Below are positions 18,206 through 39,017 of a stretch of DNA of 64,000 nucleotides, piece after piece. Position numbers and translations under genes: made by a program. Source of the DNA: Escherichia phage EPIMRB01. The stretch lies in the sequence record PQ657784. The stretch is one strand, 5' to 3'. Positions within the stretch are counted from its first letter, which is position 1. Every line of letters begins with the position of its first letter. The notes under the pieces were generated by a model. The model saw only the letters and a program-made list of their open reading frames with translations. It searched no databases and was not told the DNA's origin.

Positions 18206-18231
18206 TTTCTGTTCCTCCGTAGTTGATAGTT

Positions 18232-18270
18232 GTATAGTATCACAGAGGAACAGTCTTGTAAACAACTAAA
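18232..18270 (-). promoter_or_regulatory. T4-type early promoter with conserved leader TACTATACAACTATCAACTAC
   Basis: Reverse complement reads GTTTACAAGACTGTTCCTCTGTGATACTATACAACTATCAACTACGGAGG. Confidence 0.55.
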
Positions 18271-19638: not shown

Positions 19639-19672
19639 TTTATTCTCCAAATCCGTATCAGTTGATAGTTGT

Positions 19673-19725
19673 ATAGTACCATAAAGCTTTATGCTTGTAA
19701 ACCGTTCTGTGAAAAATTTTTGAAA
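19673..19725 (-). promoter_or_regulatory. T4-type early promoter with conserved leader
   Basis: Reverse complement reads TTTTTCACAGAACGGTTTAC-N17-TACTATACAACTATCAACTG. Confidence 0.55.
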
Positions 19726-23660: not shown

Positions 23661-23687
23661 GATGTTCTCCTCTTTATCCGATAGTTG

Positions 23688-23725
23688 TATAGTATCACAG
23701 CTCAAACGGAAAGTAAACCGGTAAA
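23688..23725 (-). promoter_or_regulatory. T4-type early promoter with conserved leader
   Basis: Reverse complement reads GGTTTAC-N17-GATACTATACAACTATCGGATAAAGAGGAG. Confidence 0.55.
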
Positions 23726-30051: not shown

Positions 30052-30525
30052 TTATTTGAACGATTTAACGTACTGAATAGAACCTTTACTATTTACAAAG
30101 GCAATTTTACCATTTTTATTATACATTGTAGCAGTACGTTGATAGCCATAAGTTTGTTTACCAGATTGATAACCAACTAATGCAAAATTATCTTCACCCA
30201 TTTTATTCTGTTTAGCGCGAATGCGTTCATGACCATGTGCCATAAGAACCTTAGCATCACCAGTTGCAATGGATCGACGAGTTTTTTCATCTTCAACTGT
30301 ATTAACAAAGTCGTCAAATGAATCAAATTTAGCATGAGATTTATTATACAATTTTCCATCTACTGCATAATTATATCCCTGTACATCCATCTCAACTTCT
30401 GTACCATCATCCAATACAGCAGTAATTTTCTGTCCTTTTTTAAATTTCAAAAGATCAGTAAAAGATTCAGCAATAATTTGAGAATTAATAGCTGCTTCAG
30501 TGATAAATTCTTGATATGTTTTCAT
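30052..30525 (-). CDS. Internal (capsid-packaged) protein with capsid-targeting sequence, 157 aa (IPII/IPIII position)
   Basis: N-terminus MKTYQEFITEAAINSQIIAE matches the T4 internal-protein targeting leader with protease-type cleavage after I-x-E. Confidence 0.7.
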   Translation of the reverse strand: MKTYQEFITEAAINSQIIAESFTDLLKFKKGQKITAVLDDGTEVEMDVQGYNYAVDGKLYNKSHAKFDSFDDFVNTVEDEKTRRSIATGDAKVLMAHGHERIRAKQNKMGEDNFALVGYQSGKQTYGYQRTATMYNKNGKIAFVNSKGSIQYVKSFK

Positions 30526-34047: not shown

Positions 34048-34578
34048 TTATATCATGCTATTTAAGAGATGTAAACTATTTTTAATTTTACAAATTCGTT
34101 CAGCTTCTTCAACAGCGGCGGCGATAATGCTTTTAGCTATAGGAGTACTAATACTAGTAGCTTTTACACTTAACACGATTTCTTTATCTTTACCAGGCCA
34201 ACCCCACGATTTTTCACCGTGAGTGCCTTTAATTACAGCAGACACCTCAAGTGAGCATCCATTATCATATGTTTTTACATTGACAACCCAAGGTTCACTT
34301 TTCTCAATCGGTTTCTCAATCGGTTTATCCCAGTAAATATTAAGAATACGTGGGACATCAAATTTGGCAGGACAAATCTTAACCGTAAGACCTTCGCTTT
34401 CTAGCCAATTAATAAGAGGGCGTTCATACAGGCGACGATGTGGGCTTGGGATTCGACAAGCCTTATGTCCGTTGCTTGCGGCTTCACTAAGCTGTTCTAA
34501 TACCTGCTTTTGCATTATTGATAAGATACCATCAAAAGATTTTTCGGAAGTTTCATTCAGTTCGGTATAAAGAGACAT
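34048..34578 (-). CDS. Hypothetical protein, 176 aa
   Basis: ORF. Confidence 0.5.
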   Translation of the reverse strand: MSLYTELNETSEKSFDGILSIMQKQVLEQLSEAASNGHKACRIPSPHRRLYERPLINWLESEGLTVKICPAKFDVPRILNIYWDKPIEKPIEKSEPWVVNVKTYDNGCSLEVSAVIKGTHGEKSWGWPGKDKEIVLSVKATSISTPIAKSIIAAAVEEAERICKIKNSLHLLNSMI

Positions 34579-34633: not shown

Positions 34634-34897
34634 TTATTTCATATTATTGAAATATTCTTCTGCGATTTCGTCGTTATCGTGGTAAACTTTAGAAGACAGT
34701 TTAACATAACCTTCAGCGGTGAACATGTTAATCACAACCTTTACAGTATACCACTGACCATCTTCATTACCCATTACTGCATAGGTTTCAAACATCGGAT
34801 GGTCAGGACCGATAACTTTAATATCATTCACTGTACGACCGAAATCTTCTGAAACGCATTTCATAAAGAAGTTGAACAGTTCGCCGTAATTATCCAT
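34634..34897 (-). CDS. Hypothetical protein, about 87 aa (start at the Met after promoter and GGAGAAT RBS)
   Basis: Track ORF 34634..34951 trimmed to MDNYGELF. Confidence 0.45.
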   Translation of the reverse strand: MDNYGELFNFFMKCVSEDFGRTVNDIKVIGPDHPMFETYAVMGNEDGQWYTVKVVINMFTAEGYVKLSSKVYHDNDEIAEEYFNNMK

Positions 34898-34942
34898 TTT
34901 ATTCTCCAAGTTGTTTTTCTGTATCAGTAGTTGATAGTTGTA

Positions 34943-34995
34943 TAGTACCATGGAAGAACGGGGATGTAAACCGTTTTGTGAAAAAATTTTTAAAA
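34943..34995 (-). promoter_or_regulatory. T4-type early promoter with conserved leader
   Basis: Reverse complement reads AAAAATTTTTTCACAAAACGGTTTAC-N17-GGTACTATACAACTATCAACTAC. Confidence 0.55.
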
Positions 34996-35104
34996 AGTTT
35001 TAGGGAATTCTAGGGCAGGGATGGGCAATTAAAGGATAGGATAATATATTATAAAGGGTATAAACTAAATGATGCCTAGAGAGGTCCAGAAAGGCCTAGA
35101 TATC

Positions 35105-35132
35105 AAAAAGCCCCAACCTTTCGGTCGGGGCT
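35105..35132 (-). terminator. Intrinsic terminator (AGCCCC-loop-GGGGCU plus U5); copy 1 of an exact 28-nt repeat
   Basis: Plus strand aaaaagccccaacctttcggtcggggct just after the stop of ORF 35139..35612. Confidence 0.65.
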
Positions 35133-35138
35133 AAAATG

Positions 35139-35612
35139 TTATTTGATTTGTTTAGCAGACCAAATGCGGTCTTTGATGATTTTTTGGATGTCTTCAACAT
35201 ACTCAAGAGAGTGAGCATGTGGGTTATCTTTGAAACTATAAGCACGAGCTAGCTTTTGGCCTTCGGTTTTGATTACTAAAAGCTCTTTAAGGATAGCTTC
35301 ATATTTAGCGATAATTCCTTTAACAATATTTTTTTCTTGTGCAGCTTTAGGATCTGCTTTAGGAGCAGGTTTACCCGAAGCCTTTGCAAAAGCAGCGCCA
35401 GTAGCAACTAAACTTTTCCAGGCCATACTAACTGCATTTCCCGTAAATCCTTCTGCTTTCATGTCGCGAGCAAACTGGAATCGTGATTCGTCAGAAGCAT
35501 CTTTATAGGAATATTTACCCGCTGCAATGGCTGCTTTTGCGACAGCTTGAATTTCGGTGCTAGATGCTTCATTTAACACCGCTTCATTTAAAAATTGAGC
35601 ATATGATTTCAT
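35139..35612 (-). CDS. Internal-protein-like protein with capsid-targeting-type leader, 157 aa
   Basis: N-terminus MKSYAQFLNEAVLNE resembles the internal-protein leader MK(T/S)YxEF(I/L)xE with an L-x-E cleavage context; Ala/Lys-rich body. Confidence 0.6.
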   Translation of the reverse strand: MKSYAQFLNEAVLNEASSTEIQAVAKAAIAAGKYSYKDASDESRFQFARDMKAEGFTGNAVSMAWKSLVATGAAFAKASGKPAPKADPKAAQEKNIVKGIIAKYEAILKELLVIKTEGQKLARAYSFKDNPHAHSLEYVEDIQKIIKDRIWSAKQIK

Positions 35613-35652
35613 CTTATTTCCTGTTTTAATTCGTGGATTTAATATACTACTA

Positions 35653-35660
35653 TATTTATA
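35653..35660 (-). promoter_or_regulatory. Late promoter TATAAATA upstream of the internal-protein-like gene
   Basis: Reverse complement of 35653-35660 is TATAAATA. Confidence 0.5.
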
Positions 35661-35662
35661 CT

Positions 35663-35690
35663 AAAAAGCCCCAACCTTTCGGTCGGGGCT
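35663..35690 (-). terminator. Intrinsic terminator; copy 2 of the exact 28-nt repeat
   Basis: Identical sequence to 35105-35132. Confidence 0.6.
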
Positions 35691-35693
35691 AAG

Positions 35694-35996
35694 CCTTGCG
35701 GCAACCTTGTCGGGGTTCCACCTGCTAAGGCAAGTGTTTGTACGAAACGCCGGGATTCGAACCCGGTTATTAAGCAGTTGACGCTACTCAATATTTTTAA
35801 AAGGCCATATCTCGACCATATCCGAACGTTCCGTCAAAAACGCTACTCGGCTTACGGCAAAGATATTTCCTCGAATCGATAATTCGGTGCGCCGTTTCTG
35901 CTGTGATAGTAAAGAATCAGAACACAGTAAAACTGTGGGAGAAACTATACTCCAGGGAACATCAGTCCGACGACTTACCGGTAGCGACCCGGTTTC
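35694..35996 (-). ncRNA. Non-coding region next to the tRNA cluster containing a tRNA-like T-arm; candidate small stable RNA or tRNA remnant
   Basis: No credible ORF; 35749-35768 cgccgggattcgaacccggt is a perfect T-stem-loop (GGTTCGAATCC) without a full cloverleaf. Confidence 0.3.
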
Positions 35997-36347
35997 TTAG
36001 TATTCTTTTAAAGCATCAACCTGTTCACGACGTTTACGCCATAAATCAATTACTTCATACGCAGATTCAGCATTTCGAATTGGACGGCATTTATATAAAG
36101 ACTTATGATTTTGATATTGTGTAGATAACGGAATTTTATCTAAAAGGTCTTTACGTTCAAAATATTCGTAACCATCTAAACCAAATGAACGATTTTTGAG
36201 AAATTGCCAATGACCGTATTCGTTTTCGACATAAACATAATCTGCATGCTGATAAAGTAAATTAATTACACGTTCAGAAATAACAGTGTCATTGTGATTA
36301 AAATAGAATGTTAAATCATGAACTACTAAATAAACATTACCTTTCAT
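35997..36347 (-). CDS. Hypothetical protein, 116 aa, immediately downstream of the tRNA cluster
   Basis: ORF; no motif recognised. Confidence 0.45.
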   Translation of the reverse strand: MKGNVYLVVHDLTFYFNHNDTVISERVINLLYQHADYVYVENEYGHWQFLKNRSFGLDGYEYFERKDLLDKIPLSTQYQNHKSLYKCRPIRNAESAYEVIDLWRKRREQVDALKEY

Positions 36348-36363
36348 ATTTTCCTCACTTAAT

Positions 36364-36439
36364 TGGTCGAGGCAGTAGGGATCGAACCTACGACCTAGGA
36401 CTTAGAAGGTCCTTGCTCTTCCTTCTGAGCTATGCCTCG
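36364..36439 (-). tRNA. tRNA-Arg (anticodon UCU)
   Basis: Cloverleaf folded by eye: 7-bp acceptor, D-stem GCTC/GAGC, anticodon loop CTTCTAA, T-loop TTCGATC, encoded CCA. Confidence 0.8.
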
Positions 36440-36443
36440 GATT

Positions 36444-36518
36444 TGGCGGACGTGATAGGATTCGAACCTATAACCAATCGCTTAACAGGCGATCGCTCTG
36501 CCATTGAGCTACACATCC
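36444..36518 (-). tRNA. tRNA-Asn (anticodon GUU)
   Basis: Acceptor GGATGTG/CACGTCC, D-arm AGCTCAATGGCAGAGC, anticodon loop CTGTTAA, T-arm, CCA. Confidence 0.7.
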
Positions 36519-36522
36519 AAAT

Positions 36523-36609
36523 TGGTGGGGAGTGATGGAGTCGAACCACCCGAGTCGCAATGACAATGAATTTACAGTCCACACCGCTACCTCTACGGGA
36601 TAACTCCCC
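36523..36609 (-). tRNA. tRNA-Tyr (anticodon GUA), long variable arm; D-arm non-canonical
   Basis: Perfect acceptor GGGGAGT/ACTCCCC, anticodon loop CTGTAAA, T-arm GGTGG-TTCGACT-CCATC, CCA; D-stem pairs only weakly. Confidence 0.6.
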
Positions 36610-36618
36610 AAATTAATT

Positions 36619-36693
36619 TGGTGGCCCTGGGTGGAATTGAACCACCATCTGGCGATTATGAGTCGCTTGCTTGAACCTTCCAGCTACAGGGCC
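36619..36693 (-). tRNA. tRNA with CAU anticodon (tRNA-Ile2-like; Met not excluded)
   Basis: Acceptor GGCCCTG/CAGGGCC, anticodon loop CTCATAA, T-arm, CCA. Confidence 0.7.
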
Positions 36694-36694
36694 T

Positions 36695-36770
36695 TGGTGC
36701 TGATTGACGGAATCGAACCGCCGACCTTCTCATTACAAGTGAGTTGCTCTTCCTTCTGAGCTAAATCAGC
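36695..36770 (-). tRNA. tRNA-Thr (anticodon UGU)
   Basis: Acceptor GCTGATT/AATCAGC, D-arm AGCTCAGAAGG, anticodon loop CTTGTAA, T-arm, CCA. Confidence 0.8.
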
Positions 36771-36775
36771 AAAGC

Positions 36776-36865
36776 TGGCGGAGGCGATAGGATTTGAACC
36801 TATGAGTCGCCGGAGCGACTGCCGGTTTTCAAGACCGGTGCATTAAACCACTCTGCCACGCCTCC
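36776..36865 (-). tRNA. tRNA-Ser (anticodon UGA), long variable arm
   Basis: Acceptor GGAGGCG/CGCCTCC, anticodon loop CTTGAAA, long extra arm, T-arm GGTTCAAATCC. Confidence 0.8.
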
Positions 36866-36867
36866 AG

Positions 36868-36941
36868 TCTCCATACAAGGATTTGAACCTTGGACCTCCT
36901 GATCCCAAATCAGGCGCTCTACCAAACTGAGCTACACGGAG
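36868..36941 (-). tRNA. tRNA-Pro (anticodon UGG), CCA not encoded
   Basis: D-arm AGCTCAGTTTGGTAGAGC, anticodon loop TTTGGGA, T-arm GGTTCAAATCC; acceptor includes G-U pairs. Confidence 0.7.
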
Positions 36942-36951
36942 TAAATTAAAT

Positions 36952-37025
<74 letters not shown>

Positions 37026-37030
37026 AAATT

Positions 37031-37119
37031 TGGTGCGAGAAGTGGGACTCGAACCCACAAGGAAATCATTCCGCAGCATTTTAAGTGCTGTGCCTTTACC
37101 AATTTGACCATTCTCGCGC
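37031..37119 (-). tRNA. tRNA-Leu (anticodon UAA), long variable arm
   Basis: Acceptor GCGCGAG/CTCGCAC, anticodon loop CTTAAAA, long extra arm, T-arm GGTTCGAGTCC, CCA. Confidence 0.8.
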
Positions 37120-37191
37120 TGGGAATAAAGGACTTGAACCTTTGCATCCTGGAATCAAAATCCAGTGCCTTACCAACTTGGCTAATTCCCA
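37120..37191 (-). tRNA. tRNA-Gln (anticodon UUG), CCA not encoded
   Basis: Acceptor TGGGAAT/ATTCCCA, anticodon loop TTTTGAT, T-arm GGTTCAAGTCC. Confidence 0.75.
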
Positions 37192-37277
37192 ATTATTAAC
37201 AAAGGCTCTCAAACAAGAACCCTTGATGATAGAGGGTATTAATCAGTGCGGTATGAGTTAATAATAACAAATAATTC

Positions 37278-37793
37278 TTAAAGCAAATCAACCATTTTAA
37301 CAGTCGGCAAAACAATTTCTTCTTCAATATAAGTAAATTCTACATGTTCAACTACACGCAAGAAATCATAGTCATAGTATTCAGAAGCATGACCAAGAAT
37401 ATCAATGAGGCCTTCAGATATCTTATTACCATTCACAAAGAATAAATCAAATACACGTTCTTCATCTTCTTCGGATTTATTACCAAGGTCAACTTCTATG
37501 TCAAAGAGCTTTTTAATGAATTCTGGATAAAGTTGGTCTGAGAACAGTCCTTCAACCAAATATTCATATATAAAAAGCTCTTGCTCGCTGAACAAACCAT
37601 TACCACAATAACGTTCAACTTTGGTACTAGAATGACGACTCTTAAACTTCTTCAAGAGATATTTAAATTGTTGGAGCTCATTCTCTTCTACGCCAAACAG
37701 TGTTTTGGTTTTATAGTTGTCACCATCATTTTCACAGGTAGTGACATCAATTACGTAACCCTTAGGAATTGTGCTGCCTAAACGAATATACAT
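37278..37793 (-). CDS. Hypothetical acidic protein, 171 aa
   Basis: ORF upstream of the tRNA cluster. Confidence 0.5.
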   Translation of the reverse strand: MYIRLGSTIPKGYVIDVTTCENDGDNYKTKTLFGVEENELQQFKYLLKKFKSRHSSTKVERYCGNGLFSEQELFIYEYLVEGLFSDQLYPEFIKKLFDIEVDLGNKSEEDEERVFDLFFVNGNKISEGLIDILGHASEYYDYDFLRVVEHVEFTYIEEEIVLPTVKMVDLL

Positions 37794-38653: not shown

Positions 38654-38680
38654 TTTATTCTCCTCGGTAGTTGATAGGGT

Positions 38681-38730
38681 AATAGTATCACAACTAAAAC
38701 CCTATGTAAACAACTTTGTGAAATATTTAT
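38681..38730 (-). promoter_or_regulatory. T4-type early promoter with conserved leader variant
   Basis: Reverse complement reads AATAAATATTTCACAAAGTTGTTTAC-N17-GATACTATTACCCTATCAACTAC. Confidence 0.55.
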
Positions 38731-39017
38731 TACAAAAGATTTTTAGCAATAATCTTGAGATGTGCCGCAGAAATGTGTTTAGCTTTAAACAACGCAGTTT
38801 CTTCAGCAGGAGAGATAATGATTGTAGCACCATCCTTTTTAGCAGACCACCCATCACCTAGGTAAACAGTACCTTTGATTTCTTCGCCATCAACCAAACT
38901 AATCATTGGTTTACCTTCTCGTCCTTTATTTGCTTTAATAACTTCAGAAGTAAGAGTAGCTTCAGTAATAGTAGAAACCGGGGTAGTTGTAGAAGTAAAT
39001 TCTTTGAAAGTTTTCAT
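38730..39017 (-). CDS. Internal protein with capsid-targeting leader, 95 aa (IPI position and size)
   Basis: N-terminus MKTFKEFTSTTTPVSTITE with I-T-E cleavage context; located between 57B and the tRNA cluster. Confidence 0.65.
   Translation of the reverse strand: MKTFKEFTSTTTPVSTITEATLTSEVIKANKGREGKPMISLVDGEEIKGTVYLGDGWSAKKDGATIIISPAEETALFKAKHISAAHLKIIAKNLL

Follow-up and report, generated by a model that had tools for sequence, protein, structure and literature searches.

Two questions are raised by the 3′ end of the tRNA operon in Escherichia phage EPIMRB01 (PQ657784): why an identical terminator stands on both sides of a small gene resembling those for internal proteins, and what is encoded in the adjoining stretch that contains an isolated tRNA T-arm. 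The window, i.e. the whole 64-kb stretch of DNA analysed here, is from a Tequatrovirus (T4-like phage), and the region showed 96–99.9% nucleotide identity to many Tequatrovirus genomes. All genes at the locus lie on the minus strand. Taken as a whole, the locus is very probably the 3′ end of the tRNA operon (rnaD, rnaC, trailer and terminator T1) followed by a self-contained optional gene module, cassette A, bounded by T1 repeats. The features are as follows, in the direction of transcription.

36364–37191, minus strand: T2-type tRNA cluster (Gln, Leu, Gly, Pro, Ser, Thr, Met, Tyr, Asn, Arg), called by ARAGORN and Rfam.
35997–36347, minus strand: 116-aa ORF between tRNA-Arg and rnaD, the 'T2L trna.2 ORF' (phrog_3355).
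35886–36000 (about), minus strand: rnaD (species 2 RNA), ~115 nt, from alignment with T4 and RB68 rnaD and from covariation.
35741–35879, minus strand: rnaC (species 1 RNA), 139 nt, tRNA-like, T arm at 35750–35766, from homology to T4 rnaC and covariation.
35693–35740, minus strand: structured 3′ trailer of 48 nt between rnaC and T1, with three small hairpins (fold z = −4.05).
35663–35692, minus strand: upstream copy of T1, stem-loop at 35667–35690, putative terminator of the tRNA/rnaD/rnaC operon.
35653–35660, minus strand: T4 late-promoter motif TATAAATA, adjoining the terminator T-run and lying 41 nt ahead of the start codon of cassette A.
35139–35612, minus strand: cassette A gene, encoding a 157-aa basic all-alpha protein (ORF list; phrog_2280).
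35105–35134, minus strand: downstream copy of T1, stem-loop at 35109–35132 and then a T-run, predicted to end the cassette A transcript.
34942–34970, minus strand: T4-type early promoter of e.8 (TTTACA-17-TACTAT with a TG extension), from a promoter scan.
34634–34897, minus strand: 87-aa homologue of e.8, next gene downstream of the slot that holds cassette A (phrog_2678, E 2.7e-56; syntenic with T4 e.8).

The 28-mer AAAAAGCCCCAACCTTTCGGTCGGGGCT was confirmed on re-inspection to be identical at 35105–35132 and 35663–35690, as the sequence-only reading of this DNA had claimed. The exact repeat runs 2 nt further, to 30 nt (35105–35134 and 35663–35692), and reaches 35 nt with two mismatches (repeat family D12; 33 of 35 positions identical). 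No further copy of AAAAAGCCCCAACCTTTCGGTCGGGGCT was present in the window when up to three mismatches were allowed, and none of 100 shuffled controls contained any match. The predicted fold on the minus strand was also borne out: each copy reads AGCCCCGACC-GAAA-GGTTGGGGC and then a T-run, forming a 10-bp stem with seven G-C pairs capped by a GNRA tetraloop (GAAA), with a dG of −20.6 kcal/mol and z = −5.8. Both copies are thus predicted intrinsic (rho-independent) terminators, with a G+C-rich hairpin and a U-run placed downstream of a transcription unit. The single T1 copy of T4 corresponds to the upstream copy of the window. Transcription of the tRNA cluster in T4 ends after the species I RNA gene (PMC2330249), and the upstream copy is the counterpart of the T4 operon termination site given there. 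The 116-aa ORF is absent from T4, and both of its ends are matched by primers #24 and #25 of the same paper.

An assembly artefact was rejected as the source of the repeat, as the arrangement recurs in hundreds of independent genomes. A biological alternative is that the two copies came to be alike by independent selection for one optimal hairpin around a gene that is a fixed resident; GNRA-tetraloop terminators are common, and both copies may be needed to insulate their transcription units. This is very improbable: the identity is not confined to paired positions but takes in the TTA that precedes the stem, the T-run and sequence past it, nearby terminators such as T2 are unrelated in sequence, the 64 kb holds no other copy, and the empty site of T4 is the exact product of a crossover between the two copies. 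In T4 and PST the slot lacks a gene and holds a single terminator copy. The left flank of the single T1 in T4 is that of the left copy in the window, the right flank is that of the right copy, and the window after in-silico excision was colinear with T4, with 424 of 442 positions identical and no gap at the junction. The earlier proposal that the borders of the cassette lie at the terminator repeats was upheld by comparison of relatives, in which presence or absence of the gene, an optional module, maps precisely to the T1 repeat.

The occupancy of the slot was surveyed in the GenBank phage collection, because scanning IMG/VR with the T-arm and acceptor sequence of rnaC recovered no more than five contigs. 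Four states were found, namely empty, A, B and A+B, where B is a second cassette, and the order in A+B was always rnaC-T1-A-T1-B-T2-e.8. Insert sizes in a spread sample of 60 of the 729 records fell into classes of ~0, 558, 690 and 1240 bp. Four or more further genera (Mosigvirus, Dhakavirus, that of phage QL01, Jiaodavirus) had homologues of A with 43–80% amino acid identity in this slot, each with the operon terminator before it and a terminator after it. Cassette B was at least 95% identical in 164 of 165 records (85.6% in the remaining one), and the shared sequence flanking it was limited to ~9 nt, GGG[C/A]TTTTT.

These distributions bear on the direction of change. The sequence-only reading had the gene inserted by recombination between terminator repeats; spelled out, cassette A would have entered an ancestrally empty, T4-like site at the terminator recently, duplicating the terminator. 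The copies are identical at 30 of 30 positions in the window, as a recent event would leave them, while the downstream copy has drifted by 2–5 nt in RB68, ECML-134 and L008; empty sites do exist (T4, PST, RB6), and cassette B looks recently spread, given its near-uniformity. Gene conversion, however, is equally able to keep two copies identical, and both T1 stems alter jointly within one genome (GACC/GACC in the window, TTCC/TTCC in Mosigvirus). Since A homologues hold the same position, between terminators, in the four other genera, the empty state of T4 and PST is most simply explained, and more likely to have arisen, by deletion between the repeats, and the direction first proposed is probably reversed; we consider a recent insertion unlikely, though a serious competitor.

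In the favoured reading, the two T1 copies are direct repeats that would serve as a movable site of recombination. Crossing-over from one copy to the other would precisely remove a unit of 'T1 + late promoter + gene', yielding the T4/PST state, and the unit could be restored by the same reaction run backwards or by recombination with a relative infecting the same cell; such crossovers would generate the four natural states. Indels mediated by terminator/promoter motifs, including excision as a mini-circle, are documented in T4-like phages (PMC2839356, PMC4122927). Homologous recombination at the terminator cannot by itself account for everything, because the repeat is just 30–35 nt without an early promoter and the flanks of B share still less.

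The module appears to carry its own transcription signals. The motif TATAAATA occurs 12 times in the window against 10.5 expected, which is no enrichment, and is statistically uninformative by itself, so the late-promoter call rests on its position and on conservation across genera: the junction TTTTT(A/G)GTATAAATAT is conserved in RB68, QL01, JS98 and Jiaodavirus, while Mosigvirus and Dhakavirus IME341 have a TAATAAATA-like sequence in place of the motif. Cassette A would accordingly be transcribed late, from a promoter directly after the T-run of the upstream T1, and its transcript would be stopped by the second, identical T1 (35105–35134) ahead of the early promoter of e.8, which belongs to a repeat family of early promoters (D1) with five copies in the window.

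That the repeat brackets an internal-protein-like gene was also confirmed: the 157-aa product of the minus-strand ORF at 35139–35612 has an internal-protein-type N-terminus, MKSYAQFLNE|AVLNE|A, which contains two protease motifs of the form L-x-E. The first ten residues, MKSYAQFLNE in A and MKTYAEFLTE in B, resemble a capsid-targeting sequence, and in A they are followed by L/I-x-E sites as cleaved by the prohead protease (gp21), with candidate cleavages at FLNE|A (residues 7–11) and VLNE|A (13–17). A site of the form L/I/M/C-x-E|(A/Q)-S is kept in all homologues aligned. A capsid-targeting regular expression written for the present analysis matched two ORFs in the whole 64-kb window. The N-termini of A and B resemble that of the IpIV-like ORF of the window and, more loosely, that of ipI (MKTFKEF...). 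Mullaney and Black reportedly described in 1996 a capsid-targeting sequence resembling MKTYQEFIAE, and the annotations of the IpIV-like and PST Ip proteins agree with it.

The cassette A protein has a pI of 9.5. An AlphaFold model was all helical (pLDDT 75); it gave no significant match in PDB and in BFVD matched its own family only. Searching PDB sequences with a profile was likewise without a hit. Nor did Pfam yield a match for cassette A; of the five local ORFs tested, e.8 alone produced a weak hit, below threshold (PF23559, 16.7 bits; cut-off 27). Cassette A is hypothetical in every database record, never annotated as an internal protein, and is named in no record or paper found, the catalogue of T-even internal proteins by Repoila et al. 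(1994) lying outside the search.

[quoted passage not shown] Alternatively, it could be a late cytoplasmic or structural accessory protein, neither packaged nor injected, whose N-terminal likeness is a functionless product of gene shuffling; the resemblance to IpI–III does end after the first 10–17 residues. Against this, the N-terminal motif and L-x-E|A are kept down to 38–43% identity (Yersinia fHe-Yen9-01 and Klebsiella KP01) while the remainder diverges, and the neighbouring cassette B bears the same kind of signal (MKTYAEFLTEA) on a body unrelated to A. A role outside the head thus seems unlikely, without being far-fetched, and packaging is the preferred reading.

Upstream of T1, the perfect T-stem-loop CCGGG-TTCGAAT-CCCGG is present as described (35750–35766, minus strand). 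It had been taken for an orphan, a description that does not hold: covariation places it in a complete tRNA-like four-way junction, that of rnaC. Alignment of 35694–35996 across T-even genomes matched the stretch to T4 rnaD and rnaC, both of which RB68 annotates there. The stretch had been suggested to hold a small stable RNA or a tRNA remnant; the former is correct and already known, as rnaC and rnaD, and the latter is not supported. Likewise, its description as having no ORF requires amendment, as ORFs of 34–50 aa are present, but none is conserved. Several deposited genomes carry short hypothetical proteins, tRNA-Lys, tRNA-Phe or tRNA-OTHER over the rnaC/rnaD stretch.

rnaC was identical to the annotated T4 rnaC (NC_000866 70908–71046) at 137 of 139 nt (98.6%) and occupies the same place at the 3′ end of the operon, in the order rnaD, rnaC, terminator common to both phages; by homology it is the T4 species 1 RNA and not new. 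Its acceptor stem has 7 bp, a long hairpin replaces the D arm, an anticodon-like stem of 10 bp ends in an invariant CGUCAA loop, and the T arm completes the fold; compensatory changes back all of these parts. The structure has 48 pairs (95.5% paired), 12 of them with compensatory changes, and none of 500 shuffles did as well. A search of Rfam over 34900–37400 at E ≤ 1 returned only tRNAs and chance matches, with no match to RF00005 or any other family in 35694–35996 and no ARAGORN call there; rnaC is tRNA-like, not a tRNA. Being tRNA-like, it is presumably processed as one.

rnaD, directly upstream of rnaC, is by homology the T4 species 2 RNA, likewise not new. The 5′ end of rnaD and the stop codon of the 116-aa ORF overlap. 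The rnaD fold is built from a hairpin at the 5′ end, a long-range helix and an apical domain that can be swapped and contains a hairpin at 35923–35937 (26 pairs, 12 with compensatory changes, 0/500 shuffles as good). Identity to T4 was 78% overall, the 5′ 50 nt and 3′ 25 nt being conserved and the middle replaced; rnaD of Shfl2, OE5505 and HY03 was 97–99% identical, with the same central domain, and RB68 has a central domain of a different type. A convergent adaptive SNP has reportedly been found in phage BW-1, falling in rnaD. This change turns the rnaD of BW-1 into the allele of the window, and a C-G pair is regained in the hairpin at 35923–35937. Both RNAs have been known since the 1970s, and both would be cut as stable RNAs from a transcript shared with the tRNA cluster (36364–37191).

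Could the stretch 35694–35996 be a tRNA gene in decay, or code for a short protein, and not be a functional RNA? The lack of a tRNA call there by ARAGORN or Rfam would fit, as would the deposited annotations listed above. We regard it as extremely improbable: rnaC is 97.8–100% identical across three genera, compensatory base changes are many in both RNAs, and in T4 both RNAC and RNAD have been detected experimentally, by RNA-seq and Northern blot (PMC9697503). Two known stable RNAs remain the preferred reading. The trailer that follows them was 94–99% identical across Tequatrovirus, Mosigvirus and Dhakavirus IME341 loci and 81–85% identical in JS98, QL01 and SP18; its hairpin GCC-GCAA-GGC is swapped for ACC-CUA-GGU in JS98 and QL01. 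It contains a degenerate terminator-like motif (CCCCGAC..AAGGTTG, 35702–35717). Pairing of this motif with the T1 3′ arm as an antiterminator was rejected as unlikely, because at most 7 bp across a loop of ~35 nt would compete with the 10-bp tetraloop hairpin.

Cassettes A and B are two families labelled 'hypothetical' in hundreds of genomes, both with a capsid-targeting signal. All three T4 internal proteins are reported to counter restriction by blocking GmrSD-family type IV enzymes, which makes A and B, by analogy, reasonable candidates for injected anti-defence proteins. A bolder combination would make both of them new 'Ip' types, injected anti-defence proteins not recognised before, on a terminator-bounded unit still actively excised and re-inserted during infection, with rnaD as a host-specific fitness factor needing its intact apical hairpin, as the restored C-G pair of BW-1 would suggest; we offer this joint reading tentatively and as rather unlikely in full. 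The four-state slot is a clean natural case for testing recombination at a 30-nt terminator repeat, and the covariation-supported structures of rnaC and rnaD could seed RNA families and stop mis-annotation of these genes as tRNA-Lys, tRNA-Phe or short ORFs.

Compared with known systems, the RNA part of the locus is close to that of T4, where rnaC and rnaD also close the tRNA cluster and precede the operon terminator. It differs in that the central domain of rnaD is one long hairpin in T4 and two short hairpins in the window, and in that tRNA-Arg abuts rnaD in T4, whereas the 116-aa ORF lies between them in the window. rnaC shares with canonical tRNAs (RF00005) the 7-bp acceptor stem, the 5-bp T stem with a UUCGAAU loop and the four-way junction, and its neighbours in Karamvirus and Kagamiyamavirus are genuine tRNAs; unlike canonical tRNAs, it has a ~65-nt hairpin instead of a D arm, a 10-bp 'anticodon' stem with a 6-nt loop, and ACA where CCA is expected.

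Polymorphism of internal proteins among T-even phages has been described (Repoila et al. 1994, as cited in PMC12373910 and PMC4122927). Like IpI, IpII and IpIII of T4, cassette A combines a capsid-targeting-like N-terminus with an L/I-x-E protease site, and it is small, basic, non-essential, variably present among relatives and flanked by regulatory signals. It differs in its location, between e.8 and rnaC and not at the ipI or ipII/ipIII loci, and in a mature part without sequence or fold similarity to known internal proteins.

The module itself resembles PeSL elements (Arbiol 2010, Comeau 2014), in which a repeated stem-loop or terminator flanks an optional ORF in a hyperplastic region; as mini-circle excision predicts, relatives lacking the gene (T4, PST) retain a single copy of the repeat. 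A PeSL is, however, a composite in which a stem-loop lies just ahead of an early promoter resembling those of sigma-70, followed by a Shine-Dalgarno sequence and ATG (PMC4122927), and here the stem-loop part alone (30–35 nt) is repeated, the motif after the upstream T1 copy is that of a late promoter, and the early promoter of e.8 lies ~140 nt from the downstream copy. The documented PeSL crossovers, too, fall between the −10 element and ATG, or between the −10 element and the Shine-Dalgarno sequence, and not in the stem-loop; crossover in an AT-rich region has the status of a proposal (PMC2839356, PMC4122927). What is new here is modest, namely two unannotated internal-protein candidates and covariation-backed structures for rnaC and rnaD. 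Little is new in kind, as these RNAs, module shuffling and internal-protein variation have already been described for T4-like phages. The locus is an ordinary, largely known piece of T-even genome plasticity, and it matches the terminator/promoter-mediated module shuffling of T4-like phages represented by PeSL elements and internal-protein polymorphism.

The 28-mer at 35105-35132 recurs at 35663-35690 without a mismatch, as the sequence-only reading had stated, and the exact repeat in fact extends to 30 nt (T1; downstream copy 35105-35134, upstream copy 35663-35692), or to 35 nt when two mismatches are allowed. No further copy of the 28-mer with up to three mismatches was found in the window, and 0 of 100 shuffles matched. 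Every gene of this region is on the minus strand, where T1 reads AGCCCCGACC-GAAA-GGUUGGGGC, then a U-run. This confirms the proposed terminator: the stem has 10 bp and is capped by a GNRA tetraloop (dG -20.6 kcal/mol, z = -5.8). The two copies enclose a 157-aa ORF (35139-35612, minus strand), termed cassette A.

T4 carries a single T1, whose left flank is that of the left copy in the window and whose right flank is that of the right copy. Deletion in silico of one 558-bp repeat unit made the window colinear with T4, with 424 of 442 positions identical and a gap-free junction. In relatives, the interval between the stable RNA gene rnaC and e.8, the first gene downstream (the slot), may also hold a second cassette, B, with a 188-aa product (MKTYAEFLTE↓A...) and, behind the gene, a terminator other than T1, designated T2.

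States of the slot
Empty: T4, PST
A: window, RB68
B: Shfl2, HY03
A+B: OE5505, ECML-134, an IMG/VR contig

The order in A+B genomes is invariably rnaC-T1-A-T1-B-T2-e.8. From the 729 matching records a spread sample of 60 was examined. The query was covered in full by 36 of these (about 6 empty, 21 A-sized, 4 B-sized and 5 A+B-sized); in the other 24 the match starts only at the terminator or at rnaC, and the four of them that were fetched include ECML-134 (A+B) and HY03 (B). Cassette A is present in 511 phage records (≥90% identity in 368) and B in 165 (≥95% in all except one). The T1 repeat of 30-35 nt stands on both sides of A; the flanks of B, T1 and T2, have only GGG(C/A)TTTTT in common. 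In deposited OE5505 (L003, 1714-2836), both cassette genes are frameshifted: GGGTAAATTATTCC of A has one T too many, and B is split in two, as B is also in RB69. These broken genes may be pseudogenes or sequencing errors. The e.6/e.8 interval is polymorphic too: its ORF has 176 aa in the window (phrog_6869; 34048-34578, minus strand) and 172 aa in RB68, against 111 aa in T4, where it is e.7, and 58 aa in both PST and Shfl2.

The duplication had been read as insertion by cassette exchange. An optional module with a precise empty site in T4 agrees with that reading, but the direction is probably the reverse, since Mosigvirus, Dhakavirus IME341, QL01, contig L008 and Jiaodavirus all carry homologues of A (43-80% amino acid identity) at this position, directly after the terminator of the tRNA/rnaD/rnaC operon. 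The simplest history would be that A is an old resident gene and that the T4/PST state arose by deletion between the repeats; recent re-acquisition of A in the window's own lineage is conceivable. The T1 stem pairs are more alike within a genome than between genera (GACC/GACC in the window, TTCC/TTCC in Mosigvirus), a pattern indicative of gene conversion or of repeated rounds of excision and re-integration. A motif at 35702-35717 (CCCCGAC..AAGGTTG, minus strand), between rnaC and the upstream T1, resembles a decayed third T1 copy, is conserved across genera and may be the scar of an older duplication.

The description of the bracketed gene as internal-protein-like is upheld by its capsid-targeting-like N-terminus, but neither a Pfam family for the ORF nor a fold match for its predicted structure (all-helical, pLDDT 75) was found. 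The ORF matches phrog_2280 (function unknown), its homologues are confined to T4-like phages and every one is named 'hypothetical', and the protein is basic (pI 9.5). Its N-terminus, MKSYAQFLNE↓AVLNE↓A, follows the same pattern as that of an IpIV-like 157-aa ORF at 30052-30525 (minus strand; MKTYQEFITEA) adjoining lysozyme gene e, which is like the annotated 157-aa ipIV beside e in phage PST in position and length. The product of ipI (38730-39017, minus strand), differing from T4 IpI at 1 of 95 residues, resembles the pattern more loosely, and in six frames of the 64-kb window the capsid-targeting regular expression matched only A and the IpIV-like ORF. The motif and an L/I/M/C-x-E↓(A/Q)-S site are kept in A homologues down to 38-43% identity (Yersinia fHe-Yen9-01, Klebsiella KP01). 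During assembly of the T4 head, proteins with such an N-terminus are directed to the prohead core, and the gp21 protease removes the targeting sequence. We infer that the A product is probably packaged and injected. Counting A, this phage has three candidate capsid-targeted proteins at three loci. A TATAAATA late-promoter motif at 35653-35660 abuts the terminator T-run, 41 nt before the A ATG; the motif alone showed no enrichment in the window, and the junction TTTTT(A/G)GTATAAATAT recurs in RB68, QL01, JS98 and Jiaodavirus. All three internal proteins of T4 were recently shown to be inhibitors of distinct restriction enzymes of the GmrSD type (PMC12373910), and purely by analogy anti-restriction would be the likeliest role of A and B.

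Many Tequatrovirus (T4-like) genomes match the region at 96-99.9% identity, and 35694-35996 aligns with the annotated rnaC and rnaD of T4 (NC_000866) plus a trailer preceding the operon terminator. RB68 has exactly the arrangement of the window, with both RNAs annotated. ARAGORN and Rfam found ten tRNAs at 36364-37191 and made no call in 35694-35996.

Features upstream of T1
35693-35740, minus strand: trailer between rnaC and the operon terminator
35741-35879, minus strand: rnaC (species 1 RNA), by alignment with T4
about 35886-36000, minus strand: rnaD (species 2 RNA), by alignment with T4
35997-36347, minus strand: 116-aa ORF (phrog_3355) between tRNA-Arg and rnaD, inside the tRNA operon

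In T4, rnaC and rnaD are cotranscribed with the tRNAs, with termination after the species I gene (PMC2330249), and both have been seen by RNA-seq and Northern blot (PMC9697503); their roles are given as unknown (PMC3014915). The 116-aa ORF is the 'T2L trna.2 ORF' of PMC2330249, its ends being matched by primers no. 24 and no. 25 of that paper, and the window thus has a T2-type tRNA region, without segB. The stop codon of this ORF overlaps the first rnaD-homologous bases, so that 3′ processing of tRNA-Arg, which could make the rnaD 5′ end in T4, cannot do so here.

Of the two proposals made for 35694-35996, a small stable RNA was correct, borne out by alignment to the annotated RNAs of T4 and RB68 and by covariation-backed folds where Rfam was silent; a tRNA remnant is contradicted by the covarying four-way junction of rnaC. 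In the RNAalifold consensus of 12 aligned rnaC sequences, the acceptor stem has 7 bp, and at its two central U·U mismatches phage TG1 has U-A and C-G. A long irregular hairpin stands where a tRNA has its D-arm; the other two arms are a 10-bp anticodon-like stem with an invariant CGUCAA loop and a 5-bp T stem with loop UUCGAAU. Among its 48 pairs, 95.5% of cells are paired (about 40% with partners slid) and 12 show changes on both sides, values reached by 0 of 500 shuffles. The T-stem-loop at 35750-35766 is therefore not an orphan, and rnaC is tRNA-like but not a tRNA, which explains the labels tRNA-Lys, tRNA-Phe and tRNA-OTHER in some deposited genomes. In some deposited genomes it is mis-annotated as short ORFs. 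Identity of rnaC is 97.8-100% among Tequatrovirus, Mosigvirus and Gaprivervirus, with neighbouring proteins down to 70-80%, and 75-83% in Karamvirus, Tegunavirus and Kagamiyamavirus. It is cleanly absent from both Dhakavirus genomes, IME341 (L016, 2266-2460) and JS98 (L021, 1500-1712), where rnaD runs directly onto the trailer (…GGCGCACCGA joined to ACACUUGCC…), and is thus dispensable there.

In the fold of rnaD, from 13 sequences, (A/G)CCGG-GUCGCUA-CCGG(U/C) makes a 5′ hairpin and GUCGUCG/CGGCG-CAC a long-range helix; the remaining elements are a short helix, in which U-A switches to A-U, and an apical domain whose sequence type varies between lineages. Compensatory changes occur in 12 of the 26 pairs tested, a result equalled by none of 500 shuffles. 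In a 2025 study, all phage BW-1 lines evolved on E. coli ECOR34 had acquired a single convergent SNP, T to C at position 164264 inside rnaD (PMC12685909). The rnaD of BW-1 (L026) is of the window's type, and the SNP, at alignment column 86, is A to G in the RNA sense (CACAG-UUUUA-CUAUG to CACAG-UUUUA-CUGUG), restoring a C-G pair and giving an allele identical to 35923-35937 (minus strand) of the window. This hairpin keeps its stem, with a variable loop, in HY03, IME341 and a Phapecoctavirus copy, and would appear to matter for fitness on some hosts. An rnaD-like sequence also lies between tRNA-Asn and tRNA-Thr of Phapecoctavirus OP562383 (L020, 1470-1590, minus strand), of a different subfamily and labelled an Acinetobacter phage, with 79% identity over 81 nt and a compensatory change in both the 5′ hairpin and the long-range helix. 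Of 237 matching records, just 7 cover 80% or more of this query; most Phapecoctavirus records listed match no further than its first ~86 nt, a pattern suggestive of horizontal transfer. Adjoining it is an undetected tRNA-like sequence, GGACUUG…GCAGGUAUCGAAUCCUGC…CGAGUCC.

New here are two candidate capsid-targeted proteins without annotation, A and B, whose locus is absent from the ip loci in the accessible literature, the covariation-backed structures of rnaC and rnaD, neither with an Rfam match in the scanned stretch, and the proposal that the T4 arrangement is the deleted state. The components themselves are of known kinds: T4 species 1 and 2 RNAs, an operon terminator, and a terminator-bounded optional gene of internal-protein type. 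According to the promoter-early stem-loop (PeSL) model of Arbiol, Comeau and Krisch, the optional ORFs of hyperplastic regions lie between terminator/promoter motifs, whose recombination excises a mini-circle and leaves one copy in the relative; the authors tie this model to the internal-protein polymorphism of Repoila et al. 1994 (PMC2839356, PMC4122927). The T1 arrangement fits such a mechanism, but unlike in canonical PeSLs, the repeat is the stem-loop only, its upstream copy precedes a putative late promoter, and the e.8 early promoter is ~140 nt away from the downstream copy. Five similar early-promoter regions on the minus strand (18216-18263, 19655-19702, 23671-23718, 34924-34971 and 38664-38711; 69-81% identity with the reference copy across 48 nt), including the e.8 and ipI promoters, are the repeated promoter component of PeSL-type elements.
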